Below are positions 455 through 58,220 of a stretch of 64,000 nt of DNA, piece after piece. How positions within the stretch are numbered: position 1 is the first letter of the stretch; every line of letters begins with the position of its first letter. The stretch lies in assembly GCF_003018255.1 (NCBI RefSeq), contig NZ_CP027440.1. One strand, 5' to 3'. The stretch comes from Escherichia coli (lineage in GTDB: Bacteria; Pseudomonadota; Gammaproteobacteria; Enterobacterales; Enterobacteriaceae). The position numbers and the translations under genes were made by a program. The notes below the pieces were generated by a model. The model searched no databases, was not told where the DNA came from, and saw only the letters and a program-made list of their open reading frames with translations.

Positions 455-456
455 AA

Positions 457-780
457 CTACAGGCGGTGGCGATAATCGCTGGGAGTGCGATCAAACTGCC
501 GACGGAAAACGCGGGAGAAGGTCTGCTGAGAGACATAACCCAGGTCCATTGCGATATCAAAAATCGGACGCTCGGTGGTGCGCAACTCAACGGCGGCCAG
601 TAACAGGCGGCGTTGGCGAATGTAATCACCTAGTGTCTGATGCGTCACAGTACGGAACATCCGCTGTAAGTACCACTTTGAATAGCCTGATTTTTTTGCG
701 ACGACATCAATGTTAAGCGGCTGGTCAATATGCTCGTCAATCCATGCGATAAGATCCTGAATAATTTTCTGATGGGACAT
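457..780 (-). CDS. soxS: SoxS superoxide-response transcriptional activator (AraC/XylS family)
   Basis: 107-aa ORF recognised as SoxS; divergent from soxR with the SoxR operator between them. Confidence 0.95.
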   Translation of the reverse strand: MSHQKIIQDLIAWIDEHIDQPLNIDVVAKKSGYSKWYLQRMFRTVTHQTLGDYIRQRRLLLAAVELRTTERPIFDIAMDLGYVSQQTFSRVFRRQFDRTPSDYRHRL

Positions 781-836
781 AAATCTGCCTCTTTTCAGTG
801 TTCAGTTCGTTAATTCATCTGTTGGGGAGTATAATT

Positions 837-854
837 CCTCAAGTTAACTTGAGG
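837..854. promoter_or_regulatory. SoxR operator within the soxS promoter spacer
   Basis: Perfect 18-bp palindrome CCTCAAGTTAACTTGAGG between divergent soxS and soxR; matches the SoxR site as I recall it. Confidence 0.75.
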
Positions 855-865
855 TAAAGCGATTT

Positions 866-1330
866 ATGGAAAAGAAATTACCCCGCATTAAAGCGCTGCT
901 AACCCCCGGCGAAGTGGCAAAACGCAGCGGTGTGGCGGTATCGGCGCTGCATTTCTATGAAAGCAAAGGGTTGATTAGCAGTATCCGTAATAGTGGCAAT
1001 CAGCGGCGATATAAACGTGATGTGTTGCGATATGTCGCAATCATCAAAATTGCTCAGCGTATTGGCATTCCGCTGGCGACCATTCGTGAAGCATTTGGCG
1101 TGTTGCCCGAAGGGCATACATTAAGTGCGAAAGAGTGGAAACAGCTTTCGTCCCAATGGCGAGAAGAGTTGGATCGGCGCATTCATACCTTAGTGGCGCT
1201 GCGTGACGAGCTGGACGGATGTATTGGTTGTGGCTGCCTTTCGCGCAGTGATTGCCCATTGCGTAACCCGGGCGACCGCTTAGGAGAAGAAGGCACAGGC
1301 GCACGCTTGCTGGAAGATGAACAAAACTAA
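866..1330 (+). CDS. soxR: SoxR redox-sensing MerR-family regulator ([2Fe-2S])
   Basis: 154-aa ORF; N-terminal MerR-type HTH and C-terminal [12 protein letters not shown] cysteine cluster. Confidence 0.95.
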
Positions 1331-1355
1331 AGCGCCACAAGGGCGCTTTAGTTTG
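1323..1355. terminator. Bidirectional rho-independent terminator at soxR 3' end
   Basis: Inverted repeat AAACTAAAGCGCC..GGCGCTTTAGTTT straddling the soxR stop, with T-runs on both strands. Confidence 0.6.
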
Positions 1356-1465
1356 TTTTCCGGTCTTTGTCTTTCTCTCTATCCCGCTGGTACACAGGAG
1401 GGTTTCCCCCGACGTCAACACACCTCATTCGAGCACGTGGTGGAGGTTCCGGTTGGTGTTGATGC
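1325..1465 (-). ncRNA. ryjA: Candidate small RNA RyjA (convergent with soxR)
   Basis: Positional inference only: K-12 has a ~140-nt sRNA on the opposite strand ending at the soxR terminator. No sequence-intrinsic proof; boundaries approximate. Confidence 0.3.
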
Positions 1466-1875
1466 TTTAATTGTATGTCACCGGCGTTTCTTCGCCAGTG
1501 TAAAAGTACACTTTTTAGCCGCAATATTTTTGTCATCTCAGACGATTTTTTATCGCAATCCTGAACGGTATACGGCTCGATAACGCTGCAATCTTGCGCA
1601 TCGACGATAACGTTTGCGCATCAATTGCCTGGTTTTTCATCGTCAAGACAATAAAAGAGAAAAAAGCAGCAAACTTCGGTTGAAAAAGCCGCTATGATCG
1701 CCGGATAATCGTTTGCTTTTTTTACCACCCGTTTTGTATGCGCGGAGCTAAACGTTTGCTTTTTTGCGACGCACCAATTTGTCGCAAACCTGGAGCAGGA
1801 AGATAACGTTTCGCTGGCAGGGGATTGTCCGCCACGCATCTTGACGAAAATTAAACTCTCAGGGGATGTTTTCTT

Positions 1876-3225
1876 ATGTCTACGCCATCAGCGCGTACCG
1901 GCGGTTCACTCGACGCCTGGTTTAAAATTTCACAACGTGGAAGCACTGTCCGTCAGGAAGTGGTTGCCGGGTTAACAACATTTCTGGCGATGGTCTACTC
2001 GGTTATCGTCGTTCCAGGCATGTTGGGTAAAGCAGGCTTCCCGCCTGCGGCAGTTTTCGTTGCGACCTGTCTGGTTGCCGGACTCGGTTCTATCGTGATG
2101 GGTCTGTGGGCTAATCTGCCGTTGGCGATTGGTTGCGCCATCTCCCTGACGGCGTTTACCGCATTCAGTCTGGTGCTGGGGCAACATATTAGCGTACCTG
2201 TCGCGCTGGGTGCCGTGTTCCTGATGGGTGTGCTGTTTACGGTCATTTCTGCCACGGGTATCCGTAGCTGGATTTTGCGCAACTTGCCGCACGGTGTGGC
2301 GCACGGCACGGGGATTGGTATCGGTCTGTTCCTGCTGCTGATTGCTGCTAATGGTGTCGGTCTGGTGATTAAAAACCCACTTGATGGTCTGCCCGTCGCG
2401 CTGGGGGATTTCACGACCTTTCCGGTGATGATGTCGTTGGTGGGGCTGGCAGTGATTATCGGCCTGGAAAAACTGAAAGTCCCTGGTGGCATTCTGCTGA
2501 CCATTATCGGTATCTCAATTGTCGGTTTGATCTTCGATCCTAACGTCCATTTCTCCGGCGTTTTCGCCATGCCTTCATTGAGCGATGAAAACGGCAATTC
2601 ACTAATTGGCAGCCTGGACATTATGGGCGCGCTGAATCCTGTAGTCCTGCCAAGCGTTCTGGCGCTGGTGATGACGGCAGTATTTGATGCCACCGGAACT
2701 ATCCGTGCCGTCGCCGGCCAGGCGAACCTGCTGGATAAAGATGGGCAGATCATCGACGGCGGGAAAGCACTGACCACTGACTCCATGAGCAGCGTTTTCT
2801 CTGGCCTGGTGGGTGCAGCTCCGGCAGCGGTATACATCGAGTCTGCGGCGGGTACGGCGGCGGGCGGTAAAACCGGTTTGACGGCTATCACCGTTGGCGT
2901 GCTGTTCCTGCTGATTCTGTTCCTCTCTCCGCTCTCTTACCTCGTTCCGGGGTATGCAACGGCTCCGGCGCTGATGTACGTTGGCCTGCTGATGCTGAGT
3001 AACGTGGCGAAAATCGACTTTGCTGATTTTGTTGATGCGATGGCGGGTCTGGTTACGGCGGTATTCATCGTGCTGACCTGTAACATCGTAACAGGCATCA
3101 TGATCGGCTTCGCGACTCTGGTGATTGGTCGTCTGGTTTCCGGCGAATGGCGCAAGTTGAACATCGGTACGGTCGTTATCGCTGTGGCGCTGGTGACCTT
3201 CTATGCGGGTGGCTGGGCTATCTAA
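1876..3225 (+). CDS. ghxP: Guanine/hypoxanthine permease (NCS2/AzgA family)
   Basis: 449-aa polytopic membrane ORF; position after soxR matches yjcD/ghxP. Confidence 0.9.
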
Positions 3226-3375
3226 TCTTTCATATGATTCTGAAAACGGGTGGCAATGGCTGCCCGTTTTTATTTTCTCCGCACATTGTGTGAGCTTTTG
3301 CGATATTCTGAAAAAATGAGAATTCAGGCATAACGCCTTTCTCAGATCATAAAAAACATCGCAAACAGGGAACGC

Positions 3376-5025
3376 ATGGAAATCTTCTTCACCATACTGA
3401 TAATGACCCTCGTGGTCTCGCTGTCCGGGGTGGTCACTCGTGTCATGCCCTTTCAGATCCCGCTTCCGCTTATGCAAATCGCCATCGGTGCGCTACTGGC
3501 GTGGCCGACGTTTGGTTTGCATGTGGAGTTTGATCCTGAACTCTTTTTAGTCTTGTTTATCCCGCCGTTGCTGTTCGCTGATGGCTGGAAAACGCCGACC
3601 CGTGAATTTCTCGAACATGGTCGAGAGATTTTCGGCCTCGCGCTGGCGCTGGTGGTGGTCACCGTGGTCGGCATTGGCTTTCTTATTTACTGGGTGGTGC
3701 CGGGCATTCCGCTGATCCCCGCCTTTGCGCTGGCGGCGGTGCTTTCTCCGACCGATGCTGTGGCGCTCTCGGGGATTGTTGGCGAAGGGCGCATCCCGAA
3801 AAAAATCATGGGCATTTTGCAGGGCGAAGCGTTGATGAATGACGCCTCCGGTCTGGTGTCGTTGAAGTTTGCCGTGGCAGTGGCGATGGGGACGATGATC
3901 TTCACCGTCGGTGGTGCGACGGTCGAATTTATGAAAGTGGCCATTGGCGGTATTCTCGCCGGTTTTGTGGTGAGCTGGCTGTACGGTCGCTCGCTGCGAT
4001 TCCTCAGCCGCTGGGGCGGTGATGAACCCGCGACGCAGATCGTCCTGCTGTTCCTGCTGCCATTCGCTTCTTATCTGATTGCCGAACATATTGGCGTTTC
4101 CGGTATCCTCGCTGCGGTTGCCGCCGGGATGACCATCACCCGTTCCGGTGTGATGCGCCGTGCGCCGCTGGCAATGCGCCTGCGCGCAAACAGTACCTGG
4201 GCGATGCTGGAATTTGTCTTTAACGGCATGGTATTCCTGCTGTTAGGTCTGCAGCTGCCGGGTATTCTGGAGACGTCGCTGATGGCGGCAGAAATCGACC
4301 CTAACGTCGAAATCTGGATGCTGTTTACCGATATCATTCTGATTTATGCGGCGCTGATGCTGGTCCGTTTCGGCTGGCTGTGGACGATGAAAAAGTTCAG
4401 CAACCGCTTCCTGAAGAAGAAGCCGATGGAGTTTGGTTCGTGGACCACACGAGAAATCCTGATCGCGTCTTTCGCCGGGGTGCGTGGGGCGATCACTCTG
4501 GCTGGTGTGCTCTCAATCCCGCTGCTCTTGCCGGATGGTAACGTCTTCCCGGCGCGCTATGAGCTGGTGTTCCTGGCGGCTGGTGTCATTCTCTTCTCGC
4601 TGTTTGTCGGCGTGGTGATGTTGCCTATTCTGCTACAACACATTGAAGTCGCGGACCATTCGCAACAATTGAAAGAGGAACGTATTGCGCGAGCGGCAAC
4701 GGCAGAAGTGGCGATTGTGGCGATCCAGAAAATGGAGGAGCGTCTGGCGGCGGATACCGAAGAGAATATCGATAACCAGCTGCTCACAGAGGTTAGTTCT
4801 CGCGTCATTGGTAACCTGCGTCGTCGCGCCGATGGACGTAACGACGTTGAAAGTTCCGTGCAGGAAGAGAACCTTGAGCGTCGCTTCCGTCTGGCGGCAT
4901 TGCGTTCTGAACGTGCTGAACTGTACCACCTGCGCGCCACGCGGGAGATCAGTAACGAAACGCTGCAAAAATTACTGCACGATCTCGATTTGCTTGAAGC
5001 GTTGCTGATTGAAGAGAACCAATAA
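3376..5025 (+). CDS. yjcE: Putative Na+/H+ exchanger (CPA1 family)
   Basis: 549-aa ORF with N-terminal multi-TM domain and charged C-terminal tail. Confidence 0.85.
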   Translation: MEIFFTILIMTLVVSLSGVVTRVMPFQIPLPLMQIAIGALLAWPTFGLHVEFDPELFLVLFIPPLLFADGWKTPTREFLEHGREIFGLALALVVVTVVGIGFLIYWVVPGIPLIPAFALAAVLSPTDAVALSGIVGEGRIPKKIMGILQGEALMNDASGLVSLKFAVAVAMGTMIFTVGGATVEFMKVAIGGILAGFVVSWLYGRSLRFLSRWGGDEPATQIVLLFLLPFASYLIAEHIGVSGILAAVAAGMTITRSGVMRRAPLAMRLRANSTWAMLEFVFNGMVFLLLGLQLPGILETSLMAAEIDPNVEIWMLFTDIILIYAALMLVRFGWLWTMKKFSNRFLKKKPMEFGSWTTREILIASFAGVRGAITLAGVLSIPLLLPDGNVFPARYELVFLAAGVILFSLFVGVVMLPILLQHIEVADHSQQLKEERIARAATAEVAIVAIQKMEERLAADTEENIDNQLLTEVSSRVIGNLRRRADGRNDVESSVQEENLERRFRLAALRSERAELYHLRATREISNETLQKLLHDLDLLEALLIEENQ

Positions 5026-5043
5026 CGCTTTGGCGGTGTAATC

Positions 5044-5076
5044 GGTAAAAAGGTGCAGTACATCGCACCTTTTTAC
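5044..5076. terminator. Bidirectional hairpin terminator between convergent yjcE and actP
   Basis: GGTAAAAAGGTGC-AGTACATC-GCACCTTTTTACC: stem flanked by A-run and T-run. Confidence 0.65.
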
Positions 5077-5107
5077 CGTTGGTCAGGTGACCAGAGGCTA
5101 GTGGAGA

Positions 5108-7068
<1,961 letters not shown>

Positions 7069-7149
7069 CACAGATTCTCCAGAGGTAATGTAGGGATTGT
7101 TTTAATTCCCGCTCCCTTATGGGAGAAGGTTAACGCTTGGGTAACCCTT

Positions 7150-7416
<267 letters not shown>

Positions 7417-7449
7417 AACCGTTACCGACTCGCATCGGGCAATTGTGGG

Positions 7450-9408
<1,959 letters not shown>

Positions 9409-9659
9409 GCTTTTGTTCTCCTTGTAGGATGTTAATAATATGTGGCATAAGCGTTAAATGTAGGGGTATTGGCAGTTTTGTTTAGTATTTGGGCGACAGA
9501 TCACGCAAAAGTAGAATTGTGCAAATAAACGGCAGGGTAATTTTTGAAGGTCAGCAACAAAAGTTGATTAATTCTTTGAGGAACATGCAGTTATGCATGC
9601 TGTTGAAAAAGAGGAAGATACTGACTAACTCTAAAGTGGTATTTTACATGCACTTACAA

Positions 9660-9673
9660 TTGATTAAAGACAA
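9660..9673. promoter_or_regulatory. Candidate FNR half-palindrome in the nrfA promoter region
   Basis: TTGATTAAAGACAA resembles TTGAT-N4-ATCAA; lies ~140 bp upstream of the nrfA start. Site assignment is inference. Confidence 0.3.
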
Positions 9674-9758
9674 CATTCACAGTGTGGTTATTTGTTACAC
9701 ATAGGGGCGAGCAATGTCATGACAGTGTAGGTGCGGTTACTGTCGTGAAAAACAATAA

Positions 9759-11237
<1,479 letters not shown>

Positions 11238-11281
11238 CCCCGTTCCGCCTCGCAAGGGGCGGAAAACACAATGGAGTGAAT

Positions 11282-11848
11282 ATGAGCGTATTACGTTCGT
11301 TATTAACTGCCGGGGTGCTGGCGTCGGGCCTGTTGTGGAGCCTGAACGGAATTACCGCTACCCCTGCGGCGCAGGCATCTGGTGATCGCTACGAAGTTAC
11401 CCAGCAGCGTAACCCGGATGCCGCCTGTCTGGACTGTCATAAGCCAGATACCGAAGGTATGCATGGCAAACATGCTTCCGTTATCAACCCGAATAACAAA
11501 CTGCCGGTCACCTGCACCAACTGCCACGGTCAGCCATCACCGCAACACCGCGAAGGGGTGAAAGATGTGATGCGCTTTAACGAGCCGATGTACAAGGTTG
11601 GAGAGCAGAACAGCGTCTGTATGTCCTGCCATCTGCCGGAACAGTTGCAAAAAGCGTTCTGGCCACACGATGTCCACGTAACCAAAGTGGCGTGCGCCAG
11701 CTGCCATTCCCTGCATCCACAGCAAGATACGATGCAGACGTTAAGTGACAAAGGACGGATTAAGATTTGCGTCGATTGCCACAGCGATCAGCGCACCAAT
11801 CCGAACTTTAACCCGGCGTCTGTTCCGTTGCTTAAGGAGCAGCCATGA
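11282..11848 (+). CDS. nrfB: Pentaheme cytochrome c NrfB
   Basis: 188-aa ORF with five CXXCH motifs (CLDCH, CTNCH, CMSCH, CASCH, CVDCH). Confidence 0.9.
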
Positions 11849-12516
11849 CCTGGTCTCGTCGCCAGTTTCTCACCGGCGTCGGCGTGCTGGCAGCCGTCAG
11901 CGGCACCGCAGGGCGCGTGGTGGCGAAAACGTTGAATATCAATGGGGTGCGTTACGGCATGGTGCATGACGAGTCGTTATGCATCGGCTGTACCGCCTGT
12001 ATGGATGCTTGTCGGGAAGTGAACAAGGTGCCGGAAGGCGTCTCGCGCCTGACGATTATTCGTAGCGAGCCGCAGGGCGAATTTCCTGATGTGAAATATC
12101 GCTTCTTCCGTAAGTCTTGCCAGCACTGCGATCATGCGCCGTGCGTTGACGTCTGCCCGACCGGTGCGTCTTTTCGTGATGCCGCTAGCGGGATTGTCGA
12201 TGTTAATCCTGATCTCTGCGTCGGTTGTCAGTACTGCATCGCCGCCTGTCCGTACCGCGTGCGCTTTATCCATCCGGTCACGAAGACGGCGGACAAATGC
12301 GATTTCTGCCGTAAGACCAATTTGCAGGCCGGTAAGCTGCCCGCGTGCGTTGAAGCTTGCCCGACCAAGGCACTGACGTTTGGCAATCTGGACGATCCCA
12401 ACAGTGAGATTTCGCAACTGCTGCGCCAGAAGCCCACTTACCGCTACAAGCTGGCGCTGGGAACCAAACCGAAGCTGTACCGCGTACCGTTTAAATACGG
12501 GGAGGTGAGCCAATGA
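11845..12516 (+). CDS. nrfC: NrfC 4Fe-4S ferredoxin-type subunit (Tat signal)
   Basis: 223-aa ORF; N-terminal RRQFLTG twin-arginine motif and multiple CxxCxxCxxxCP clusters; start overlaps nrfB stop. Confidence 0.9.
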
Positions 12517-35680: not shown

Positions 35681-36010
35681 ATGAAACGCTTTCCGCTATT
35701 TCTTTTATTCACCCTGCTCACGCTGTCCACCGTTCCGGCCCAGGCCGATATTATCGACGACACCATTGGCAATATTCAGCAGGCGATTAACGACGCTTAT
35801 AACCCTGACCGTGGGCGAGACTATGAAGATTCGCGCGACGACGGCTGGCAGCGTGAAGTGAGCGACGATCGGCGCAGACAATATGATGACCGCCGCCGCC
35901 AGTTTGAAGATCGCCGCAGGCAGCTGGACGATCGCCAGCGCCAGCTTGATCAGGAGCGTCGGCAACTGGAAGATGAAGAGCGGAGAATGGAAGATGAGTA
36001 TGGGCGTTGA
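35681..36010 (+). CDS. yjdP: Small secreted protein with charged DDRRRQ-type repeats
   Basis: 109-aa ORF: signal peptide (..VPAQA) then tandem D/E-R-R-R-Q repeats. Confidence 0.75.
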   Translation: MKRFPLFLLFTLLTLSTVPAQADIIDDTIGNIQQAINDAYNPDRGRDYEDSRDDGWQREVSDDRRRQYDDRRRQFEDRRRQLDDRQRQLDQERRQLEDEERRMEDEYGR

Positions 36011-36037
36011 TATAGGGGCCGGCGCGGGTATTTTCCC

Positions 36038-36796
36038 TCACGCCACCTCAATCTCCATCCCATCAAACCCCGCCTCAAACCCCGATGGTAGCGCGTTTTC
36101 CATCAGCCACGCATCAAACTGATGGCTGATATGGGTCAGAATCACCCGCGGCGAGCGGATAACCTGATTCAGCGCAAGCACGGTATTTAAATCACAGTGA
36201 TTACGCGGTGCATCCTCGCGCGGCGGGTGGCTGCAATCAATCACCATTACCTGCGGCTGATTATTGCGTAAAAATTTCAGCGTTTTTTCCGGCAGGCCTG
36301 CGGTGTCAGATAGCCACGCCACCCGGCTGTGCGCCGTTTCCAGTAAATAGCCGAAAGTGAGTTTTGAGTGGTTGAGCGGTAGCGGCGTGACCTGTAATCC
36401 CTGCAAATCAAACATCACAAATGGCTCCACCGTGTGGCTGAAATCAAGCAGGCCCGAATGTTTGAATAGATCGTCGCAGCCCTGTTCATCCGGCGGGCCG
36501 TAGACCGGGATCTGATCGCCCACGCCCCAGCGCAGCGGAAACAGCCCCTGCACGTGATCCATATGGTAGTGCGTCAGCAAAAACTGCTGGAACGATCCGG
36601 GCGACCAGCGATCGGCGAGATCGTGCCGCCCGGCGTCGATCAGGGTGATCGCGTCGTTAAACTTCACGACGCCGCTGCATGGCTGGCGGCGATACTGCGG
36701 TGAGCGCCGCGCTCTGACGCAGGCCACGCACTCACAGCCCCATGCGGGAACGCCCTGTGCGCCGCCAGTGCCAGTAAGTGTGAGGGTCAGGCTCAT
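36038..36796 (-). CDS. phnP: Phosphoribosyl 1,2-cyclic phosphate phosphodiesterase
   Basis: 252-aa ORF with metallo-beta-lactamase motif HYHMDH; last gene of the phn operon. Confidence 0.9.
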
Positions 36797-36797
36797 G

Positions 36798-37232
36798 TTA
36801 CAGCACCTTGGTGAAGCGGAAGTGGCTCTGCTCGTAGCCTTCGCGCAGGTAAAATCGGTGCGCGTCGTGGCGCTTCACGTTGGTGGAAAGCTCAGTCATT
36901 TCGGCCCCGGCCTGGCGGGCTTCTTCTTCTGCCCATGCCAGTAATTTGCTGCCGACATTCAGACCGCGCGCCTGCGGCATCACCACCAGTTCCTGAATTT
37001 CGCCGATCCAGTTGACATGATGCAGATGAAACTGCAAATGCAGGCCGATCATGCCGACAACTTCGCCATCCAGCAGCGCCAGTTGGTAGCGCATGTTCGG
37101 ATCGCGCAGATTGGCGTTAAACCCCACGCGAAACGCCTGGTGGTCAAACTCCGCCTGTTTTAGCTCACAAATCAGCGCGTAAACTGCGTCGGTGTCGTAC
37201 TGCGTAGCCGGGCGAAGCTCACAAGCAGGCAT
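36798..37232 (-). CDS. phnO: Aminoalkylphosphonate N-acetyltransferase (GNAT)
   Basis: 144-aa GNAT-fold ORF. Confidence 0.9.
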
Positions 37233-37776
37233 GGTGTTTCTCCTTCTGATGAATCAGCGTCAGCAACTTGTCGACCGACTGGCGCAGGCTGCCGTCATTA
37301 TTGAGCGTAAGACAATCCTGAGGAGTATAGCGGGCAGCGCGCGCCAGCCGGGCGTTAATTTCACTGGCATTTTCACGACCACGGTTTTCCAGGCGCTGGC
37401 GCAGGATCTCTGGCGAAACCTGTAAACAAACGGGCAGCAGCGCCGATTGATAGCGCGCCCGCGCCTGCGGCAGATGGGCGCGTGAGCCGTTGACCACCAC
37501 GTCAAATCCAGCGTGCAGCCAGAGGTCAATCTCGACGCCGACGCCATAATACAGACCGTTAGCGTGCCAGCTTAAGGCCAGAAGGTTCTGCCCCGCGCGG
37601 GTAAAAAACTCCTGCTCGCTCAGGGCGATATGGTTTTCACTTCCGGCGCTGGCGGCGCGCGTGATGTAGCGATGCGCTACCAGTAGCTGAGTTTGTTCCC
37701 GCTGGCGGAGTTCCGTCAACAGACTGTCTTTTCCGGAGCCAGAGGCCCCCATTAACCAAATCAGTTTTCCCGTCAT
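37219..37776 (-). CDS. phnN: Ribose 1,5-bisphosphate phosphokinase
   Basis: 185-aa ORF with P-loop GASGSGKDS. Confidence 0.9.
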
Positions 37777-38912
37777 CAGAACACCCTTTTACCCTGACGC
37801 CAGACGTGGTCGATATGAATGTGATTGCCCTTGCGATGCGCCAGCACCAGGTCGGCGCGTTTGCCCTCGCCAATCACCCCGCGATCCTGAAGATTAAGCG
37901 CCTGCGCCGGATTTTTAGTCACCAGCTTCACCGCCTGCGGCAGCGTAAAGCGGTTGCTCTCGTCATCGGCGACGCGAAATGCCGCATCGAGCAGGCTGGC
38001 GGGGTAGTAGTCGGAAGAGAGGATATCCAGCAGGCCAAGCTGCGCCAGTTCACTGGCCGCCACGTTGCCGGAGTGCGAACCGCCGCGCACGATATTCGGT
38101 GCGCCCATCAGCACGTTCATGCCATGCTTGCGCGAGGCTTCTGCCGCTTCGAACGTGGTGGGAAATTCGGCGATTACGCTGCCAAGTTGGTGAGATTCAG
38201 CAACGTGGGCGTGCGTGGCGTCATCGTGGCTGGCGAGCGCAATGTGTCGCGCGCGGCACATTGCGGCGATGGTTTCGCGATTTGGCTGCGACCAGCGTGC
38301 GGCGAGCGCCAGCTGCTCTTCTTCATACTGCTGCATCTGCGCTTCGGTGAGCGAGTATTTGCCCTGATAATATTCGCGATACTTCTCGCGGTTAGCGAAC
38401 TGGCGCTGGCCCGGCGAGTGATCCATCAGCGACACCAGCGTCACCGGTTCGCGCTGCACCAGTTTTTCAAACAGCGGCAGCGTGGTGTGATGCGGCAGTT
38501 CGCAGCGCAGATGCAGACGGTGCTCGGCGCGGTTGACGCCGCGTTTCTGCGTCTCTTCGATGGCGTTGATCATCTTCTCCAGATTCTCCAGCCGATCGCC
38601 GCCGTCGCGCACGTCGCCAATCGCCACCGCGTCCAGCACGGTGGTGATGCCGCTCGCCACCATCAGCGCGTCGTGGCTACTCATTGCCGAGTGGGCGGGC
38701 CAGTCCACTTTTGGACGCGGGGTGAAGAATTTATCCAGATTATCGGTATGCAGCTCAATCAGCCCCGGCAGCAGCCAGCCACCTTCGCCGTCCATCGCTT
38801 CCGGCTGGCGGCTCTGGCTTTCGGCAAAGGCGCGAATTTTGCCATCCTGTACTTCCAGTGAACCGTGCACCACTTCGTTTTCCAGCACCAGTTTGACGTT
38901 ATTGATAATCAT
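37776..38912 (-). CDS. phnM: Amidohydrolase-family triphosphate diphosphatase
   Basis: 378-aa ORF overlapping phnN start and phnL stop. Confidence 0.9.
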
Positions 38913-39589
38913 GAAGAGACTCCCATTGGGTGCAGGCGGTCGGCGACGTCATTGCGTACGGCTTCGTCATGGAAGATACCGACGATGGCCGCGCCACGGG
39001 CTTTGGCTTCGCGAATTAATTCCACCACCGCGGCGCTGTTTTTAGCGTCCAGCGAGGCGGTGGGTTCATCCAGCAGCAGAATCGGATAGTCGACGATAAA
39101 GCCACGGGCGATGTTGACGCGCTGCTGTTCGCCGCCGGAGAAGGTCGATGGTGCCAGGTGCCACAGGCGTTCAGGCACGTTCAGGCGCGTCAGTAATCGG
39201 GCGGCTTTAGCGGCGCAGGCTTCACGCGGTACGCCGGTATCGAGCAGAGGCTGCATCACCACTTCCAGTGCCGAAATACGCGGGATGACGCGCAGAAACT
39301 GGCTCACCCAGCCGATGGTGGTTTTGCGGATCTCCACCACTTTGCGGGCTGGCGCGGTGACCAGGTCTACCCATTCCTCACCGTGTTTGATCTGGATTTG
39401 CCCTTCGTCGGGCAGATAGTTGGCGTACAGCGAGCGCAGCAGGGTTGATTTTCCGCTGCCGGAGTGGCCGTGAAGCACCACGCATTCGCCTGCGTTGACG
39501 GTGAGCGAGGCACGTTGTAAGACGGGCAGGCGCACGCCGTTTTGCTGATGCAGGATGAAGGTTTTACTGACGTTTTGTACGTTAATCAT
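38909..39589 (-). CDS. phnL: C-P lyase ABC-ATPase-like subunit
   Basis: 226 codons from MINVQNVSK; Walker [10 protein letters not shown]. The track ORF extends upstream into the REP spacer. Confidence 0.88.
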
Positions 39590-39610
39590 TTTTCGCCTCG
39601 TGGTTCGGGT

Positions 39611-39697
<87 letters not shown>

Positions 39698-39699
39698 GC

Positions 39700-40458
39700 T
39701 CAATTCTGCAAAACCGATGACACCAGCAGTTGTGTATACGGATGGTGCGGGTCGTCGAGCACGCGGTCGGTTAACCCACTCTCCACCACTTTCCCTTGCT
39801 TCATTACCAGCAAACGGTCCGCCAGCAGACGGGCGACGCCTAAATCGTGGGTGACAATCACTACCGCCAGGTTAAGCTCCATCACCAGACCGCGGAGCAG
39901 GTCCAGCAGGCGCGCCTGTACCGACACATCCAGCCCGCCAGTGGGTTCATCCATAAACACCAGCTTCGGATGCGTCACCAGGTTGCGGGCAATCTGCAAA
40001 CGTTGCTGCATGCCGCCGGAAAAGGTGGTCGGCAGGTCGTCGATCCGGTTGGCGGGAATCTCCACCTCTTCCAGCCATTTCTGCGCGGTGGCGCGAATAT
40101 CGCCGTAATGACGCGCTCCGGTTGCCATCAACCGTTCGCCGATATTGCCGCCTGCCGACACCTGGCGGCGCAGGCCGTCAAGCGGATGCTGATGCACCAC
40201 ACCCCATTCGGTGCGCAGCAGGCGACGGCGGTCGGCCTCGCTCATCGCGTACAGCGAACGGTTCTCGTAGCGAATTTCCCCTTGCTGTGGTGTCAGGCGG
40301 GCGGAAATTGATTTCAGTAGCGTGGTCTTCCCGGAACCGGACTCCCCAACAATGCCCAGAACTTCTCCCGGCCATAAATCAAAAGAGACATCGCTAAAGC
40401 CTTTGCCCGGCGCGTAAAGGTGGGTCAGGTTATTGACCGAAAGTAACGGTTGATTCAT
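39700..40458 (-). CDS. phnK: C-P lyase ABC-ATPase-like subunit
   Basis: 252 codons from [11 protein letters not shown]; Walker [10 protein letters not shown]. Confidence 0.9.
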
Positions 40459-41300
40459 TGGTTTTTTGCCTCGCTCTGTTGGCGGCAATAATCGGTATCG
40501 GAGCAGACAAACATGCGGTTTCCGGCGTCATCCAGCACCACTTCATCAAGATAGCTGTGGGTCGATCCGCAGATGGCGCACGGCTCATTCCACTGCTGAA
40601 CGGTGAACGGGTGATCGTCGAAATCGAGGCTTTCCACGCGGGTAAACGGCGGCACCGCATAGATGCGCTTCTCGCGCCCCGCGCCGAACAGTTGCAGGGC
40701 GGGCATCATGTTCATTTTCGGGTTATCAAATTTCGGGATCGGCGACGGGTCCATTACGTAGCGCCCGTTTACCTTCACCGGATAGGCGTAGGTGGTGGCG
40801 ATATGACCGAAGCGGGCGATATCTTCATACAGCTTCACCTGCATCACGCCGTACTCCTCCAGCGCGTGCATGGTGCGGGTTTCCGTTTCGCGCGGCTCGA
40901 TAAAGCGCAGCGGTTCGGGGATCGGCACCTGGAAAATAATGATCTGATCTTCGGTCAGCGGCGTTTCGGGGATGCGGTGGCGCGTCTGGATAAGCGTCGC
41001 ATCGTCCGTACGTTCAGTGGTGTTTACCCCGGTCACGCGCTTAAAGAAGTTACGGATCGACACCGCGTTGGTGGTGTCGTCCGCGCCCTGGTCAATCACC
41101 TTCAGCACATCGCTTTCGCCAATCACGCTGGCGGTAAGCTGTATGCCGCCGGTTCCCCAGCCGTAGGGCATCGGCATCTCGCGCCCGCCAAACGGCACCT
41201 GATAACCGGGGATCGCCACCGCTTTTAAGATGGCGCGGCGGATCATGCGTTTGGTCTGCTCGTCGAGGTAGGCAAAGTTGTAGCCGCTCAGATTAGCCAT
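40455..41300 (-). CDS. phnJ: C-P lyase catalytic subunit (radical SAM-like)
   Basis: 281 codons from MANLSGYNF; C-terminal cysteine cluster CAICGS..CSDTDYC. Confidence 0.9.
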   Translation of the reverse strand: MANLSGYNFAYLDEQTKRMIRRAILKAVAIPGYQVPFGGREMPMPYGWGTGGIQLTASVIGESDVLKVIDQGADDTTNAVSIRNFFKRVTGVNTTERTDDATLIQTRHRIPETPLTEDQIIIFQVPIPEPLRFIEPRETETRTMHALEEYGVMQVKLYEDIARFGHIATTYAYPVKVNGRYVMDPSPIPKFDNPKMNMMPALQLFGAGREKRIYAVPPFTRVESLDFDDHPFTVQQWNEPCAICGSTHSYLDEVVLDDAGNRMFVCSDTDYCRQQSEAKNQ

Positions 41301-42357
41301 GGTTCTGCTCCTGTTGCAGACGTTTGAGTAGCTCCAGTTCGGCCTGGAAATCGACGTAGTGCGGGAGTTTAAGGTGCGAGACAAAGCCTGCGGCTTCGAC
41401 GTTGTCGGCATGCGCCAGCACGAACTCTTCATCCTGCGCCGGGCCTGTCGCGTGCTCGCCGTACTCCGGGGCTTGTAGAGCGCGGTCAACCAGCGCCATC
41501 GCCATCGCTTTGCGCTCGCTCATGCCGAACACCAGCCCGTAGCCGCGCGTGAAGTGCGGCGGCTCATCCGGCGGGTCGATAAAACCGTTGACCATTTCAC
41601 ATTCGGTCATCAGCAGTTCGCCGACGTTCACCGCAAATCCCAGCTCTTCCGGCACAATCGACACGTCGATATAGCCGCTGCGGATTTCGCCTGCGAACGG
41701 ATGATTGCGTCCGTAACCACGCTGGGTGGAGTAGGCCAGCGCCAGCAAATAGCCTTCGTCGCCGCGCATTAATTGTTGCAGGCGGGAGGAGCGTGAGCAG
41801 GGGTAAACCGGCGGCGTGCGGGTGATGTCGTCCGGCTGTGCGCCGCTATCTTCTTCAAACTTCGCCAGCCCCTGACGCGCCAGCAGGCTGAAAACGTGCG
41901 GCGACGGCTGTTGTTCGCTGTCGGCTGTGGTCAGCGTCGGCGCTTCGCCGTTTGCCAGCAGGGTGAAATCGAGCAGGCGATGGGTGTAGTCGTAGGTTGG
42001 GCCAAGCAGCTGGCCGCCGGGAATGTCTTTATAAACCGCCGAAATACGGCGTTCGAGCCGCATCTCCGTGGTGTCGAGCGGCTCGCTCACCGCCAGCTTT
42101 GCCAGCGTCGTGCGGTAGGCGCGCAACAGGAAAATCGCTTCAACGTTATCGCCGCTGGCCTGTTTCAGCGCCAGTGCCGCCAGCTCACGGTCGGCAATGC
42201 CGCCTTCGGTCATCACGCGATCTACCGCGAGGTTAAGCTGCTGTTCAATCTGGGCGACGCTCAGTTCGGGTAAATCGGTATCGCCCCGGCGTCGGCTCTC
42301 TTGCAGGGCGTGGGCGGCGTCGATCGCCTTCTCGCCCCCTTTCACGGCAACGTACAT
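41293..42357 (-). CDS. phnI: C-P lyase core complex subunit
   Basis: 354 codons from [13 protein letters not shown]. Confidence 0.9.
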   Translation of the reverse strand: MYVAVKGGEKAIDAAHALQESRRRGDTDLPELSVAQIEQQLNLAVDRVMTEGGIADRELAALALKQASGDNVEAIFLLRAYRTTLAKLAVSEPLDTTEMRLERRISAVYKDIPGGQLLGPTYDYTHRLLDFTLLANGEAPTLTTADSEQQPSPHVFSLLARQGLAKFEEDSGAQPDDITRTPPVYPCSRSSRLQQLMRGDEGYLLALAYSTQRGYGRNHPFAGEIRSGYIDVSIVPEELGFAVNVGELLMTECEMVNGFIDPPDEPPHFTRGYGLVFGMSERKAMAMALVDRALQAPEYGEHATGPAQDEEFVLAHADNVEAAGFVSHLKLPHYVDFQAELELLKRLQQEQNHG

Positions 42358-42941
42358 CAGCACACCTCCACATGAGTGGTTCGCGGGATAGCCAGCAGGC
42401 GCTCGCCGCAGGTCAGGATCAGGTCGATGCCGAGCGGGAACGGGTGCGGGCGCTCGGTAAGTTCGTGCAGAATGCACTCTGGCAGCTGCGGGGCGATCAT
42501 TCGTTCTTCGGCAATACCCGCGCCAGTAAGGCGCAGCATGCGCCCGCCGCTCAGGCTGACGACCTGTAAAATCAGCGTCGCGCCCGCTTCTGGCGCAACA
42601 GCGGTGCCGCTGGAAAGGGCGTTAAGCTGTTCGCTGGAAATCGCCTCATCCGTTACCGCGAAGGTCGCCAGTTCCGGCTGATTGACCAGCGGCGCGTTGG
42701 TATGAAAACGCAGGCTCTGGCTGACGATATCGTTACTTAATGGCGCAGAAAGCCACACCGGCGTGTCGTTATCGGCCAGCGTCAGCAGCACGCTGGTGGT
42801 GGCGATATTCAGCGGCTGCCAGCCGCGTTTGAGCTGATGCAGGGCGACAATCACGCCCGGCTCGCTCATGGCTTTTAACAGGCGACGAAAACTGTGCTGG
42901 GCATCCTGCACGGGAAGCATAAAAGCGGTTTCCAGGGTCAT
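42357..42941 (-). CDS. phnH: C-P lyase core complex subunit
   Basis: 194-aa ORF. Confidence 0.9.
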
Positions 42942-43390
42942 GCGTTATCTCCGCGAACCATCGTAAAGAAGTCGACCCGGCTGGCGTTTACTTCGGCCTG
43001 GCGTGCGGCAATGCGTGCCATACGGTCAGCGTTCAGCGGGGCAATAAGAGTTTCTGATAAGTTTTGAAAATGGCGGGTTTGCTGCATCAGCGCGTCAATC
43101 AGCGCGCAGCGTTCGGCGTGCTGTTTGTCGCGCCCCAGCACCCAGCTGTAGCCGAGCGTGCCGTCAGTCAGGCGTACGGCGGCGCGGGTGAGCGTGGCGT
43201 CGCCAGCAAAAAAGCGTTCGCCGGTGCCACCCATCCGCGCCTGAATCTGCACCAGGCCGGTTTCAGCGGCGCGGATTACTTCATAGTCGGCAGTGATGTT
43301 CAGCGCCTTCAGGCGGGCTGCCAGTTCAGCCGGTTGGCTGTGTGCCAGTATGGACATCCAGTGCTGGCGGGTCGCGGTATCTGCGTGCAT
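42938..43390 (-). CDS. phnG: C-P lyase core complex subunit
   Basis: 150-aa ORF. Confidence 0.9.
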
Positions 43391-44116
43391 TCAGTGCTCC
43401 ATAGTGAATTCAATCATGTCGGCGCGCGTCAGGCTGACGGAGTACTCCGCCGGGCTGCTTTCACCGTCACGGTGGTTAAGGGTGCGCACGCACAGCAGCG
43501 GCGACATATTCGGGATTTCAAGACGCTGGCACTCTTTGGCCTGGGCGCGGCGGGCGCTGATCCGCGTCTGGCTGCGGCGCAGCGCAATCCCCGTTTGCTC
43601 GCGCAGAAAATCGTGCAGCGAGCCGCTGTCGAAGCGTTGCAGCGTCGGCCAGAGGGTGAGGTCCGCAAAGTAGTGGTCGATTAAACAGAGCGCGACGCCG
43701 TTGACCCGGCGCAGGGTGCGCAGGTGGATAACGTTCTCGCCCTCGGTTATCCCCAGCGCGTCAGCGACGTGACCGGAGGCCGGGCGCAGCACAGACAGCA
43801 GTTTTTCGCTGGTGGGATGGCTGCCCTGATCCAGCAGGTTCTGGCTAAAACGCGCCTGGGCGTTGAGCGGGTAATCGAACGGGCGCATCAGCACCAGCAC
43901 GCCGACGCCCTGACGGCGCTGTACCCAGCCTTTTTCCACCAGTTGGTCGATGGCGCGGCGCAGGGTGTGGCGGTTCACCTCAAAGCGCGCCGCCAGTTGC
44001 TGCTCGGCGGGAAGATAGTCGCCGCAGCGGTAGTGTTGACGAAGCTCCTGCTCAAGTTTTGCGGCTATCTCCTGATAGCGTGTTGGGTAGCTGGTCGGAT
44101 GTGTAGACAAGTGCAT
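43391..44116 (-). CDS. phnF: GntR-family repressor of the phn operon
   Basis: ~241-aa ORF with N-terminal HTH and UTRA-type C-terminus. Confidence 0.88.
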   Translation of the reverse strand: MHLSTHPTSYPTRYQEIAAKLEQELRQHYRCGDYLPAEQQLAARFEVNRHTLRRAIDQLVEKGWVQRRQGVGVLVLMRPFDYPLNAQARFSQNLLDQGSHPTSEKLLSVLRPASGHVADALGITEGENVIHLRTLRRVNGVALCLIDHYFADLTLWPTLQRFDSGSLHDFLREQTGIALRRSQTRISARRAQAKECQRLEIPNMSPLLCVRTLNHRDGESSPAEYSVSLTRADMIEFTMEH

Positions 44117-44136
44117 AGATATCAATGCCTCGCTTA

Positions 44137-44916
44137 TCAGATAAAGTGCTTACGCAACCGTTGAGAGAGGAAATCCAGCAGGCTGACCGTGACGATAATC
44201 AGCACCATCAGGGCGCAGGTTTGCTGGAACTGGAAACCGCGAATCGCTTCCCACAGGGTGACGCCGATCCCGCCCGCGCCGACCATGCCAACAACGGTGG
44301 CCGAACGGACGTTGGATTCGAAGCGATAGAGGGAGTAGGAGATCAGCAGCGGCATCACCTGCGGCAGCACGCCGTAGAGGATCTCTTCGAGCTTGTTGGC
44401 ACCAGTGGCGCGAATACCTTCCACCGGGCCGGGTTCAATTGCTTCTACCGCTTCGGAAAGCAGTTTGGAGAGCACGCCGGTGGTGTGGATAAACAGCGCC
44501 AGTACGCCAGCGAACGGACCGAGACCGACGGCGACCACGAACAGCATGGCGAAGACCATCTCGTTAATGGCGCGGCAGGCGTCCATCAGGCGGCGAACGG
44601 GCTGATACACCCACCACGGCACCAGGTTTTCAGCGCTCATCAGGCCGAAGGGGATGGAGAGAACGACTGCCAGCGCGGTGCCCCAGACGGCGATTTGCAG
44701 CGTGACGGCCATTTCGGTGAGGTAATCCTGCCATTGGCTGAAATCGGGCGGGAAGAAGTCGGCGGCGAAGGTTGCCATGTTGCCGCCGTCTTTGATCAGC
44801 GTAAGCGGGGCCATTTCCGCGCCCTGCCACGAGACGACCAACACGGCGAGAACAATGGCCCAGCTCAGAAGCGAGAACCAGCTGCGCTTGGGTGGGGCGA
44901 TGGTGATGGTTTGCAT
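44137..44916 (-). CDS. phnE: Phosphonate ABC transporter permease (intact allele)
   Basis: Single continuous ORF (259 aa from MQTITIAPP; 280 aa from an upstream in-frame start), with no frameshift. Confidence 0.85.
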
Positions 44917-44931
44917 GTTTGGCTCCGGTCT

Positions 44932-45018
44932 GTAGGCCGGATAAGGTGCTTGCACCGCATCCGGCATCAACGTCTGCACATTGTCGGATGCGACGCCGGG
45001 GCGTCTTATCCGACCTAC
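44932..45018. repeat. REP pair inside the phn operon (phnD-phnE spacer)
   Basis: GTAGGCCGGATAAGGTGCTTGCACCGCATCCGGCA and GTCGGATGCGACGCCGGGGCGTCTTATCCGACCTAC. Confidence 0.8.
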
Positions 45019-45021
45019 GAT

Positions 45022-46038
45022 TTACTGCACCGCTTTACTCACCGAACTCATCGCGCTTAACGCGTTGTTCAGGCGGTCCAGGTCATCCAGTTGCGCCTGA
45101 ATGGCGCTGGTTTTTGCCAGCTTGTCCTGCTCATTCAGCCCTTTATTGCCTTTCACGCCCTGCATCTCTTTAAACAGCGCGAGCTGGCGAATCGGCACCA
45201 GTTGCAGGTCGCTGGAGGCGCGGAACGGGGCCCAGCCCAGGCGTTCCAGCACCGCTTTCTCTTCCGGCGTTTTGCCGTAGTTCATAAAGAAGTCGTAGAT
45301 CTTGTCTTTGGTGGTTTCGGACAGATTTTTGCGCCAGACGATCGGATCGCCTGGGATCAGCGGCGATTTCCAGATCACCTTCAGTTCTTTGAGCTTCTCC
45401 GGTGCGGAGGTTTTCAGCTTGTCGAGGTTTTCGGTGTTGTTGGTCGCCACATCCACCTGTTTGTTGGCGACGGCCAGCGCGTTGGTTTCATGCCCGGCGT
45501 TGACGGTGCGCTTGAAGTCGCTGGCGGAGATATTGTTTTTGGCGAAGACGTAGTAGCCGGGGACGAGGAAGCCAGAGGTGGAGTTAGGATCGCCATTGCC
45601 AAAGGTGAGATCTTTACGCTTCGCCAGCAGATCGTTCAGGTTGTTGATCGGACTGTCTTTGTTGACGATCAACACGCTCCAGTAACCTGGCGATCCATCC
45701 GCCGCGACCGTCTGGGCGAAGACCTGACCGTTGGCGCGATCCACCGCTTCCATCGCCGACAGATTGCCGTACCAGGCGATATCCACTTTGTTGAAGCGCA
45801 TTCCCTGGATAATGCCCGCGTAGTCCGGGGCAAAGAAGGCGTTGACCTTTACGCCCAGCTTCTTCTCCATATCCTGTAAGAACGGCGTCCATTGCGGTTT
45901 CAGGTTTTGCTGTGATTCCGTTGAAATAATGCCGAAATTCAGCGCCTTTTCCTGCTCTTCGGCGTGCGCCGGGCTTAACAGGGTGCTGAGGCTGAACATG
46001 CTGGTGAAGGCCAGCGAGGCAATTATCTTAGCGTTCAT
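45022..46038 (-). CDS. phnD: Periplasmic phosphonate-binding protein
   Basis: 338-aa ORF with signal peptide. Confidence 0.9.
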   Translation of the reverse strand: MNAKIIASLAFTSMFSLSTLLSPAHAEEQEKALNFGIISTESQQNLKPQWTPFLQDMEKKLGVKVNAFFAPDYAGIIQGMRFNKVDIAWYGNLSAMEAVDRANGQVFAQTVAADGSPGYWSVLIVNKDSPINNLNDLLAKRKDLTFGNGDPNSTSGFLVPGYYVFAKNNISASDFKRTVNAGHETNALAVANKQVDVATNNTENLDKLKTSAPEKLKELKVIWKSPLIPGDPIVWRKNLSETTKDKIYDFFMNYGKTPEEKAVLERLGWAPFRASSDLQLVPIRQLALFKEMQGVKGNKGLNEQDKLAKTSAIQAQLDDLDRLNNALSAMSSVSKAVQ

Positions 46039-46062: not shown

Positions 46063-46851
46063 TCAGGCAGCTTTCGCGTTCTCTTCAATGCGATTAATGC
46101 TGCGGTAGAGATGGTCAAAACGTTCGTTATCAAACAGTTGGCTGCTGCCGTCGTAAAAGACGTGCCCCTGACGCAGGGCGACGATGCGTTCGCAGTAGCG
46201 CAGGGCGTAATCCACCTGATGTAGCGTGACGACCACGGTGATGCCGTCGTTCTGGTTGATGTCGCGCAGGGTGTCCATCACGATGCGCGCCGATTCCGGG
46301 TCCAGCGAGGCGATGGGTTCGTCCGCCAGAATCACCTTCGCCTGCTGCATCAGCGCGCGGGCAATCGCCACACGCTGTTGCTGTCCGCCGGAGAGGGTGG
46401 AAACGCGCTGATGGGCAAAGTGCACCATGCCAACGCGGGTCAGCGCCTGTAACGCGCGCTGTTTCTGCTCGCGGGTGAAGTAGCTAAAACAGGTGCGCCA
46501 GAATGGCGTGCTGCCGAGCGCGCCAATCAGCACGTTCTCCAGTACGCTCAGGCGATTCACCAGGTTGAATTGTTGGAAGATGTAGCCGGTATTGGCGCGG
46601 CTTTTGCGGATATCGCGGGCCAGGCGGCCTTCGCGCTGGACTGTGCGGCCCAGCAGCTCGATATGGCTACCGGCAGATTTATCGCCGGTAATCAAACCGC
46701 TTAAGTGACGTAAAAGGGTGGATTTGCCGGAACCCGACGGCCCAAGCAGAGCCACCATTTCACCGTGATGAATGTTCAGATCAACCGCGTGCAGCGCCTG
46801 ATGCTGATTGAAGGTTTTGGCGAGCTTCTCGACACGGATAATCGTTTGCAT
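46063..46851 (-). CDS. phnC: Phosphonate ABC transporter ATPase
   Basis: 262-aa ORF with Walker [10 protein letters not shown] and LSGGQQQR signature. Confidence 0.92.
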
Positions 46852-46889
46852 GATGCAGCCTCCCTAAAAAAGTGGCTCCATCGTGGCGG

Positions 46890-46930
46890 ATTATTGTGAC
46901 GATTTTGTTAACTAAAAGTGACTAACGGAT
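46890..46930 (-). promoter_or_regulatory. Pho box (PhoB site) of the phnC promoter
   Basis: Minus-strand CGTTAGTCACTTTTAGTTAACAAAATCGTCACAAT, ~45-80 bp upstream of phnC; resembles the CTGTCAT-type pho box. Confidence 0.55.
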
Positions 46931-46983
46931 GAAGAGTTAACGAGATTTCGATGACAGTGCGGGAGGGCGGCCCTCCCGGCGGG

Positions 46984-47427: not shown

Positions 47428-47471
47428 GATGGTGACCTCAGTTAAGAGAAGCCCGTTAAGTGTAGTTCGAA

Positions 47472-47580
<109 letters not shown>

Positions 47581-47586
47581 ATACAA

Positions 47587-55139: not shown

Positions 55140-56779
55140 TCACTCACTCTCCTGCAAGTTTGCAGAATATCATCCGCAGCCTGGTAATACTTCGTCTCAA
55201 CGCCAGTTAATCCCAATAGCGTGGAGAATAAATTATCTTGTGAATAGTGTTGCGTTTGCGCCTGTTTTTGCAGGCAGTTCTGGTCAACCTGATACCGTTT
55301 TTGATAATCCTCCGACAGCCACAGCAGCATCGGCACCTGTTTTTGGCTATCCGGGGCGATGGCATAAGGCAGACCGTGCAGATAGATGCCATTTTCACCT
55401 AACGACTCACCGTGGTCAGAAAGATAAACCAGGCTGGTGGTAAATTTATCCTGATGTTCTTTCAGCAGATTAATCGCTTTATCAACAATATAGTCGACGT
55501 AAACCAGCGTGTTGTCGTAAGTGTTCACCAGTTGCTCTTTGGTACAGGTCTGGATCTCGTTAGTGTCACAGGTTGGGGTAAATTTCCTGAACTGCGGCGG
55601 ATAGCGGTTGTAATAGGTCGGACCGTGGCTGCCGATGGTGTGTAAGACAATCACGCCATCACCCTGCAGGTTATTGATGTACTCTTCCAGCCCGTGGAAC
55701 AGCACTTCGTCATAGCATTCGCCGTTGATGCACTGACCTGGCAGATTCAGCGCGGTGACGTTCTGGTGAGGTACGCGATCGCAAACGCCTTTACAGCCGC
55801 CATCGTTGTCATTCCACAGCACGTTGATGCCCGCTCGCTGAATGATATCCAGCACGCCTTCCTGGTGCTGTGCCAGCTCTTCTTTGTAGTGCTCACGCGG
55901 CATATCCGAGAACATGCATGGTACTGAAACTGCCGTTGCCGTGCCGCAAGAGGCGGTATTAGGGAAATAGACCACGTTATCTTTTGCCAGACGAGGATTG
56001 GTTTCGCGTGGATAACCATTCAGCGAGAAATTCTCTGCGCGCGACGTTTCTCCGACGATCAAAATGGTCAGGTTTTTACGTTTCCCATTTTGCATTAATG
56101 GGTTGCGGTGAGCATCTTCACCAATGCGTATCAGTGGCAGGTTGGCTGACCGCTGGTGAGAGTACCACGACCAGCTAGCAACAATGCTGTTGGACGGGCT
56201 TAAGGATTTCACCAGCTCTTTGTTGTTGCGAAACAGCGAGGCATAGTCTTTGTAGAACAGTGCGGCAACCAGCAGAATCAGCAGTACAGAAATCAGGATG
56301 TTGGCCCCGCGGAAAAGAACGCTGCGCAGGCGTGAGGTGGTGGGGGTGATTTTGATCCAGCAGGCAATAATCGCGGCTAACACGCCACTTAACCCCAGCG
56401 TTAATAACATTCGTGGCGTCATCAGGGCATAACTTTCCGCCGGCGTAGTATCAATGATATTGGTGATCATTGAACGGTCGATGACGATGCCATAGGTCAT
56501 GATGAAATATTGTGCAGCCGCACCGACCAGAATAAACAGGCAGGCGAGTGGACGATTAAGCCATAAGAAAGAGCCTAGTGTCAGGACAATATTAATCACG
56601 CTGAATGCGACGACCGGCATCGACAAGAAAACCAGCACGTTATGCAGTGAATCCAGCGGTAACACCTGTAGCACCTGTTTAAAAAAGGCGATATTCAGGC
56701 AGACTGAGATATAAAAAGTAGCAAGTAATAACCAGGAGAATAAATTTAAAGAGGGTCTTTTTAGTAGGCGCTTCAACAT
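55136..56779 (-). CDS. eptA: Lipid A phosphoethanolamine transferase
   Basis: 547 codons from [13 protein letters not shown]-terminal 5-TM domain plus sulfatase-like domain. Confidence 0.9.
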
Positions 56780-56824
56780 CACGGTGTTTCCATCGAACAA
56801 AGTGCGCATATGCTCGCAAAGCAA

Positions 56825-56841
56825 AATTAAGCCAACCTTAA
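56825..56841 (-). promoter_or_regulatory. BasR/PmrA box upstream of eptA
   Basis: Minus-strand CTTAAG-GTTGG-CTTAAT, ~45-60 bp upstream of the eptA ATG. Confidence 0.6.
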
Positions 56842-56857
56842 GTTCTTAAGGTTGGCT
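56829..56857 (-). terminator. Hairpin downstream of adiC (overlaps the PmrA box)
   Basis: AGCCAACCTTAAG-TTCT-TAAGGTTGGCT inverted repeat with T-rich flank. Confidence 0.45.
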
Positions 56858-56882
56858 TTTATGTTTGCTTGATTAAGGGGAA

Positions 56883-58220
56883 TTAATCTTTGCTTATTGG
56901 TGCATCTAAGGGATACGGGTTTTTATGCAGCCGGTTGTAATTCAGCGCATACATGGCGGTGATTACCATCAGAGTGACAAATGACCACATAACCTCTTTC
57001 GCGCCGGACCCTACCACGGCCCAGATGCAGTAGAGGAAGGCAATGGTAGTCACTGCCAGGTATGCCGGGCGTGCTTTACCAAAGTGACCGTGGCCGAGCA
57101 GTAGTAACGCCGCACAGGTGTAAAGATATGGCACCAGTGTAAAGATGACCGACACGGAAGAAACCAGACCGAATTCTTTGGTCGCGTTTGGCGAAATGCT
57201 ACTGAGCTGGAAGATGGTCATCAAAATACCGACGATAATCAGCCCCGCCACTGGCGTGCCCGCTTTATTAACACGGGCAAAAATCGGTGGGAACAGTCCG
57301 TCATCGGCAGCGGCTTTCGCCGTTTGACCCGCCAGCAACGTCCAGCCGCCCAGTGAACCTAAGCAACCCGCAGCTGCGCAGAAGGAAACAATGGCCCCGG
57401 CGGTGTCACCCAACGCCATCCGTGCGGCATCACCGAATGGCGAAGCAGAAACGCGCAGTGCGGCATTAGGGATCATCCCCATAATCGCGGTGGTAGAAAG
57501 TACATAGCAAACGGCAGCAATCAATACCCCGCCAATGGTGGCGATAGGGACGTTGCGTTTCGGGTTTTTCACCACACCTGCGGCAACGGAGGCACTTTCC
57601 ACACCGATGAACGACCACAGCGTAACGTTAAGGGTACTTTGAATCGCACCGAAGGTGCCCAGACCGCTGACGTTCCATGCCGCCATATAGGTTTCACCAC
57701 GGAACCAGAACCAGCCAAATACGGCAATCCCGACGATGGGGATCAGCGCCAGCACGGTAGCAACGGCCTGTACGCGGGTGATCATTTTCGGACCGACAAT
57801 GTTCAGCAGGACGAAGATCCACAGCACCACGACGCAGGTGATGGTTAATACCAATGGGTCTTTCAGAATCGGGAAGAAGTAACTTAAATATCCTACGCCA
57901 ATGACCACCATGGCGATATTGCCGATCCAGCAGGCCAGCCAGTAGAGGACGTTGGTTTGATAACCGAGAAACGGGCCAAAGCAGCGGCGGGCGTAAGCGT
58001 AAGAACCACCAGGACTTGGGTCGAGGAACGACATTTTGGCGTATACCATCGAGAGCCCCAGCGCACCGATAATCGTCACCAACCATCCATAAATGGCAAT
58101 CCCGCCAGTGGAGGCCAGGTTTGCAGGTAACAGAAAAACACCTGACCCCATAATATTCCCCGACACCATCAGGGTGACGGGGATTAAGCCCACTTTGTGA
58201 GCATCAGCATCCGAAGACAT
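56883..58220 (-). CDS. adiC: Arginine:agmatine antiporter (APC family)
   Basis: 445-aa 12-TM ORF. Confidence 0.92.

Follow-up and report, generated by a model that had tools for sequence, protein, structure and literature searches.

An intact phnE with a two-unit octamer tract in a complete phn operon of a non-K-12 Escherichia coli

Does the phnE gene of a given strain of Escherichia coli specify a full-length phosphonate permease, or does it carry the frameshift that makes this gene cryptic in K-12? The extra unit of K-12 phnE is GCTGGCGT, which lies at positions 407-414 of the ORF and can be removed by replication slippage (PMC6469041). Loss of the 8-bp unit restores transport by PhnCDE, and a functional phnE is carried by most E. 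coli (PMC6469041; PMC4759930). The same question is raised by a 64-kb stretch of E. coli DNA, referred to herein as the window, in which phnE had been predicted to be intact and the phn operon, as a consequence, possibly functional. Our analysis indicates that the window very probably holds a complete phnCDEFGHIJKLMNOP operon of the ordinary, Pho-regulated kind, belonging to a natural non-K-12 E. coli, from which a full-length permease would be made; import of phosphonates and their use through C-P lyase are predicted.

The phnE gene is a single continuous permease ORF (Table 1), as had been claimed, while the 5' end first assigned to it, 44979, lies 63 nt too far upstream. That end derives from a mechanical list of ORFs, which contains a GTG-started frame of 280 aa at 44137..44979 on the (-) strand, and the translation of this frame is a continuous membrane-protein sequence. 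The GTG codon, however, falls within the REP-containing spacer between phnD and phnE, and the extra 63 nt are not phnE sequence. Position 44979 was therefore rejected as the start in favor of the ATG at 44916, which has a Shine-Dalgarno sequence (GGAG) six bases upstream and fits every RefSeq annotation compared as well as the family model; the RefSeq phnE genes of E. coli B C2566, strain 104 and DETEC-S792, all annotated as intact, match the gene in the window in both start and length.

Since its product scores 311.3 bits against TIGR01097, the NCBIfam equivalog model for PhnE with a cutoff of 216.7 bits, phnE is an ordinary gene in a conserved context and not a chance ORF. Residues 16-258 align to positions 8-251 of the 252 in that model, and the binding-protein-dependent permease domain (PF00528) is found at residues 88-258 with 91.8 bits. 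The translation also includes a 28-residue stretch that we take to be the EAA motif, the EAA loop of an inner-membrane transport domain. Genes for the ATPase (phnC) and the binding protein (phnD) adjoin phnE on the same strand. The protein is identical to WP_001193496.1 of strain 104, and V21I is its sole difference from PhnE of E. coli B and from the frame-repaired PhnE of K-12. Opposite phnE, an ATG-started ORF of 311 aa runs from 44125 to 45060 on the (+) strand; it most likely results from the GC-rich coding frame of phnE.

Table 1. Features of the phn region, in window coordinates
Feature	Position	Strand	Product or description	Remarks
phnC promoter stretch	46896..46928	(-)	putative Pho box, 33 nt, CCGTTAGTCACTTTTAGTTAACAAAATCGTCAC	homologous to K-12
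phnC	46063..46851	(-)	ATP-binding subunit, 262 aa	NF007438, 604 bits
phnD	45022..46038	(-)	periplasmic binding protein, 338 aa	TIGR03431, 376 bits
phnD-phnE spacer	44917..45021	(-)	105 nt	REP-type palindromes and the phnE Shine-Dalgarno sequence GGAG
phnE	44137..44916	(-)	phosphonate ABC transporter permease, 780 nt, 259 aa	uninterrupted; ATG start, TGA stop
octamer tract of phnE	44496..44511	(-)	GCTGGCGT ACTGGCGC, two units	site of the third unit of K-12
phnF	43391..44116	(-)	GntR-type repressor, 241 aa	protein identical to K-12
phnG	42938..43390	(-)	150 aa	NCBIfam match
phnH	42357..42941	(-)	194 aa	NCBIfam match
phnI	41293..42357	(-)	354 aa	PF05861, 515 bits
phnJ	40455..41300	(-)	C-P lyase catalytic subunit, 281 aa	PF06007, 502 bits
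phnK	39700..40458	(-)	252 aa	NCBIfam match
phnL	38909..39589	(-)	226 aa	NCBIfam match
phnM	37776..38912	(-)	378 aa	NCBIfam match
phnN	37219..37776	(-)	185 aa	NCBIfam match
phnO	36798..37232	(-)	144 aa	NCBIfam match
phnP	36038..36796	(-)	252 aa	NCBIfam match

When phnE of the window was aligned with the genes of K-12 MG1655, E. coli B and strain 104, a single 8-bp gap was the only difference in length in that alignment. The tract of MG1655 consists of three units, GCTGGCGT GCTGGCGT GCTGGCGC, and the gene, annotated as 'frameshifted' by PGAP, meets its first stop at codon 190; the tract of E. coli B consists of two units, GCTGGCGT GCTGGCGC. The window has only two units as well, so that the cryptic K-12 allele (three tandem units with a frameshift) was not found in it, and the expectation that the K-12-type 8-bp duplication would be absent is borne out by the one gap against K-12. 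Because the two-unit tract is in frame, without the extra 8-bp unit of K-12, a full-length permease is predicted. A minor peculiarity of the window tract is the A at 44503, a synonymous change (GTG to GTA, Val) that interrupts the octamer repeat. With ACTGGCGC as the second unit, the unit-to-unit homology amounts to 6 nt, versus the 7-nt core GCTGGCG of the perfect repeat; tandem units with this core, by which a slippage-prone tract may be recognized, were not found in the window tract. The shorter homology could lower the frequency of slippage.

An intact phnE would equally be read in a K-12 derivative whose gene had reverted through loss of one octamer unit, and such reversion is well documented and occurs readily under phosphate limitation (PMC6469041; PMC4759930). 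Nevertheless, phnE of the window differs from that of K-12 at 30 further positions, and at this divergence (~4%) a K-12 phnE+ revertant was rejected. Identity to MG1655 across the 64 kb, taken in 2-kb bins, is about 93-98%, where a revertant would require nearly 100%; in addition, espX5/yjcF is absent, one BIME unit instead of six is present between yjdM and yjdN, and the nearest genomes are those of natural isolates. The probability that the strain is a reverted K-12 derivative is thus close to nil.

That the strain does not derive from K-12, as had been proposed, is confirmed. When the whole window was compared by BLAST with 70 kb of MG1655, identity was 97.5-98% in the flanks and 95.5% in the phn operon. 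The absence of yjcF, part of the original argument, was also verified: between the end of yjcE (5025) and the start of actP (5108) lies a spacer of 82 bp (5026-5107), while the corresponding interval of MG1655 is ~1.6 kb and includes yjcF, annotated in K-12 as espX5, a T3SS-effector-like pentapeptide repeat protein. The intact phnE itself, in contrast, is weak evidence on strain identity, because an intact gene is common throughout the species and many natural isolates, too, carry the three-unit allele; it is the sequence divergence of roughly 3% that settles the matter. The nearest neighbours are a mosaic of natural isolates that differ from segment to segment. JNE23-011 and JNE112863 match the window with 100% identity over positions 1-12000 but with only 99.3% over positions 30000-52000, where DETEC-S792 reaches 99.4%, and the nearest phnE is that of strain 104 (99.9% identical). 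No complete RefSeq genome matched the window throughout.

Several other local differences from K-12 were observed. The phn operon (36000-44000) has the lowest identity to K-12, with 93.8-94.3% in phnP-phnL and dS up to 0.27, and a second dip, to 93.2%, occurs at 56000-58000, around eptA/adiC by coordinate mapping; elsewhere the values are 97.5-98.7%. Both stretches look like divergent alleles, possibly acquired via recombination. The yjdM-yjdN spacer (47428-47586) contains one BIME/REP unit versus six tandem units of ~100 bp in the 657-bp spacer of MG1655, and the phnP-yjdP spacer (36011-36037) is 27 bp long versus 146 bp in MG1655, where it includes a palindromic repeat element of the GGGGAGAGGG type.

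To place the window tract within the species, the alleles were counted in 5,426 complete E. coli genomes using short queries, each of which seeds megablast for one allele only. The three-unit (frameshift) allele was found in 1,012 genomes (18.7%), a perfect two-unit allele with the K-12-type local flank in 2,462, and the interrupted two-unit allele of the window in 408; about 1,500 further genomes have two-unit haplotypes (e.g. the B type) that cannot be seeded by the three short queries, and the counts therefore do not sum to the total. The contrast originally drawn between a cryptic K-12 gene and an intact B-type gene is too narrow, given that ~81% of the genomes are without the three-unit allele and many natural isolates carry it. 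An intact phnE is normal for the species and expected, and the three-unit 'cryptic' allele is not confined to K-12 or the laboratory, being a common natural allele present in ~19% of complete genomes. In a spread sample of 60 of its carriers, about two thirds came from humans, livestock, pets or water.

The number of octamers varies in nature, with two, three and seven units found. Five natural three-unit isolates were fetched, and all five have the K-12 phnE haplotype with 0-2 SNPs, which suggests, on this sample of five, that the three-unit copies are mostly inherited as one allele and not produced by recurrent slippage. The seven-unit allele, found in the bovine isolate OkiPb01713, resides on a different haplotype, 23 SNPs away from K-12 phnE, and is clearly an independent expansion, the sole one of which this can be said. 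Such variation in copy number might be taken to mean that the tract of the window is phase-variable as well, and that its consensus masks heterogeneity, part of the sequenced population having three units (OFF). This is very improbable: the GTA interruption leaves a homology of only 6 nt between the units, forward slippage from two units should be inherently rarer than reversion from three, and expanded forms of the interrupted allele were found in none of its 408 carrier genomes.

The same interruption may be given a more active role, namely that of an anti-slippage 'lock' that would keep phnE permanently ON in this lineage, while lineages with a perfect repeat would drift in nature between ON (two units) and OFF (at least three units). 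What can be cited for it is that none of the 408 interrupted genomes is expanded, whereas the other genomes include 1,012 with three units and one isolate with seven, figures that are not readable as a difference in rate because the three-unit copies mostly look inherited from shared ancestors. With the comparison confounded in this way, we regard the lock as a rather doubtful proposition.

The genes around phnE are complete as well. All 14 genes from phnC to phnP lie in order on the (-) strand between 36038 and 46851, with ATG starts and exactly the lengths of their K-12 counterparts, and, apart from the phnE unit, no hidden frameshifts, truncations, internal stops or indels were found in them relative to K-12. 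The NCBIfam equivalog cutoffs are passed by 12 of the products, while PhnI and PhnJ pass Pfam models with >500 bits, and the matches are full-length. The prediction of a full-length set of 14 genes is therefore upheld. Relative to K-12, the genes are 93-97% identical in nucleotide sequence and their proteins differ at 0-10 amino acids each. Nei-Gojobori dN/dS values are 0-0.12 for all 14 genes, the signature of purifying selection, indicating that the genes are still selected for function. PhnJ retains its radical-SAM and catalytic residues G32, C241, C244, C266 and C272, and PhnP retains its metal ligands H76, H78, D80, H81, H143, D164, H222 and H200.

From these components, a simple route to phosphonate use can be proposed. 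Given the two-unit in-frame tract, a full-length PhnE permease would be available for the uptake of phosphonates by PhnCDE, and phosphate would then be freed from the imported compounds by the C-P lyase pathway, PhnGHIJKLM(NP), under the control of PhoB. From the sequence we predict that phn is expressed in phosphate-starved cells and that the strain can grow on phosphonates.

The operon may nonetheless have intact reading frames and be silent or impaired, the cause being either substitutions in its Pho box or amino-acid replacements in PhnC, PhnI or PhnP. The region upstream of phnC (46852-46983) aligns to K-12 without gaps and is 95% identical, with six substitutions in 132 nt. Three of these, at 46927, 46912 and 46906, distinguish the window from both K-12 and DETEC-S792 within the 33-nt stretch that we take, following Makino et al. 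(1991), to be the phnC Pho box. Non-conservative replacements relative to K-12 are found in PhnC (W124Y, G127R), PhnI (G98E, G264D) and PhnP (L57R, G250E). PhoB sites consist of 11-bp tandem repeats, in each of which a TGTCA tract is flanked by AT-rich sequence; of the targets tested, the phnC promoter is reported to have the lowest affinity for PhoB (PMC4447250), which leaves some room for the possibility of a silent operon. On the other hand, the two best TGTCA-like tracts (AGTCA and CGTCA), their 22-bp spacing and the sequence downstream to the ATG are unchanged from K-12, and about 391 genome records have the same promoter haplotype (identity >=99%), so that it is a common natural variant. 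The low dN/dS values across the operon and the intact catalytic residues of PhnJ and PhnP point in the same direction. A silent or impaired operon is consequently improbable, although less so than either a reverted K-12 gene or a mixed population. The regulatory genes phoB and phoR are located outside the window. A functional phn operon is, in our opinion, a sound prediction, to which the three Pho-box substitutions are the main caveat.

The consequence of these results is mainly one of annotation: phnE of the window is to be annotated as functional, the strain is to be predicted as Phn+, and it is not to be handled as K-12. Because the three-unit allele is common in nature (~19% of complete E. 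coli genomes), no phosphonate or glyphosate-related phenotype should be deduced from a genome sequence until the length of its phnE tract has been checked. Beyond correct annotation the case is of little importance; its wider point is that the 'cryptic' phnE of K-12 is itself a common natural allele.

Three known systems may be compared with the window. One is the phase-variable type of locus: phnE was described by Iqbal et al. (2004; cited in PMC6469041) as a short-repeat contingency locus whose tract is at the same position, but the window differs in having an imperfect repeat, GCTGGCGT ACTGGCGC. The cryptic phnE of K-12 is an orthologous locus with the same operon and neighbours, and without its extra unit it would give the same protein except for V21I. 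K-12, however, has the additional GCTGGCGT that leads to the stop at codon 190, which the window does not, and the two genes are ~4% divergent across phnE. The phnE and functional phn operon of E. coli B (C2566, WP_001193500.1) share with the window a gene of 780 nt, a two-unit tract, the order of the 14 genes and the flanking genes. They differ by 26 synonymous or near-synonymous SNPs outside the tract, by V21I in the protein, and by the first base of the second octamer unit, which is A in the window and G in E. coli B.
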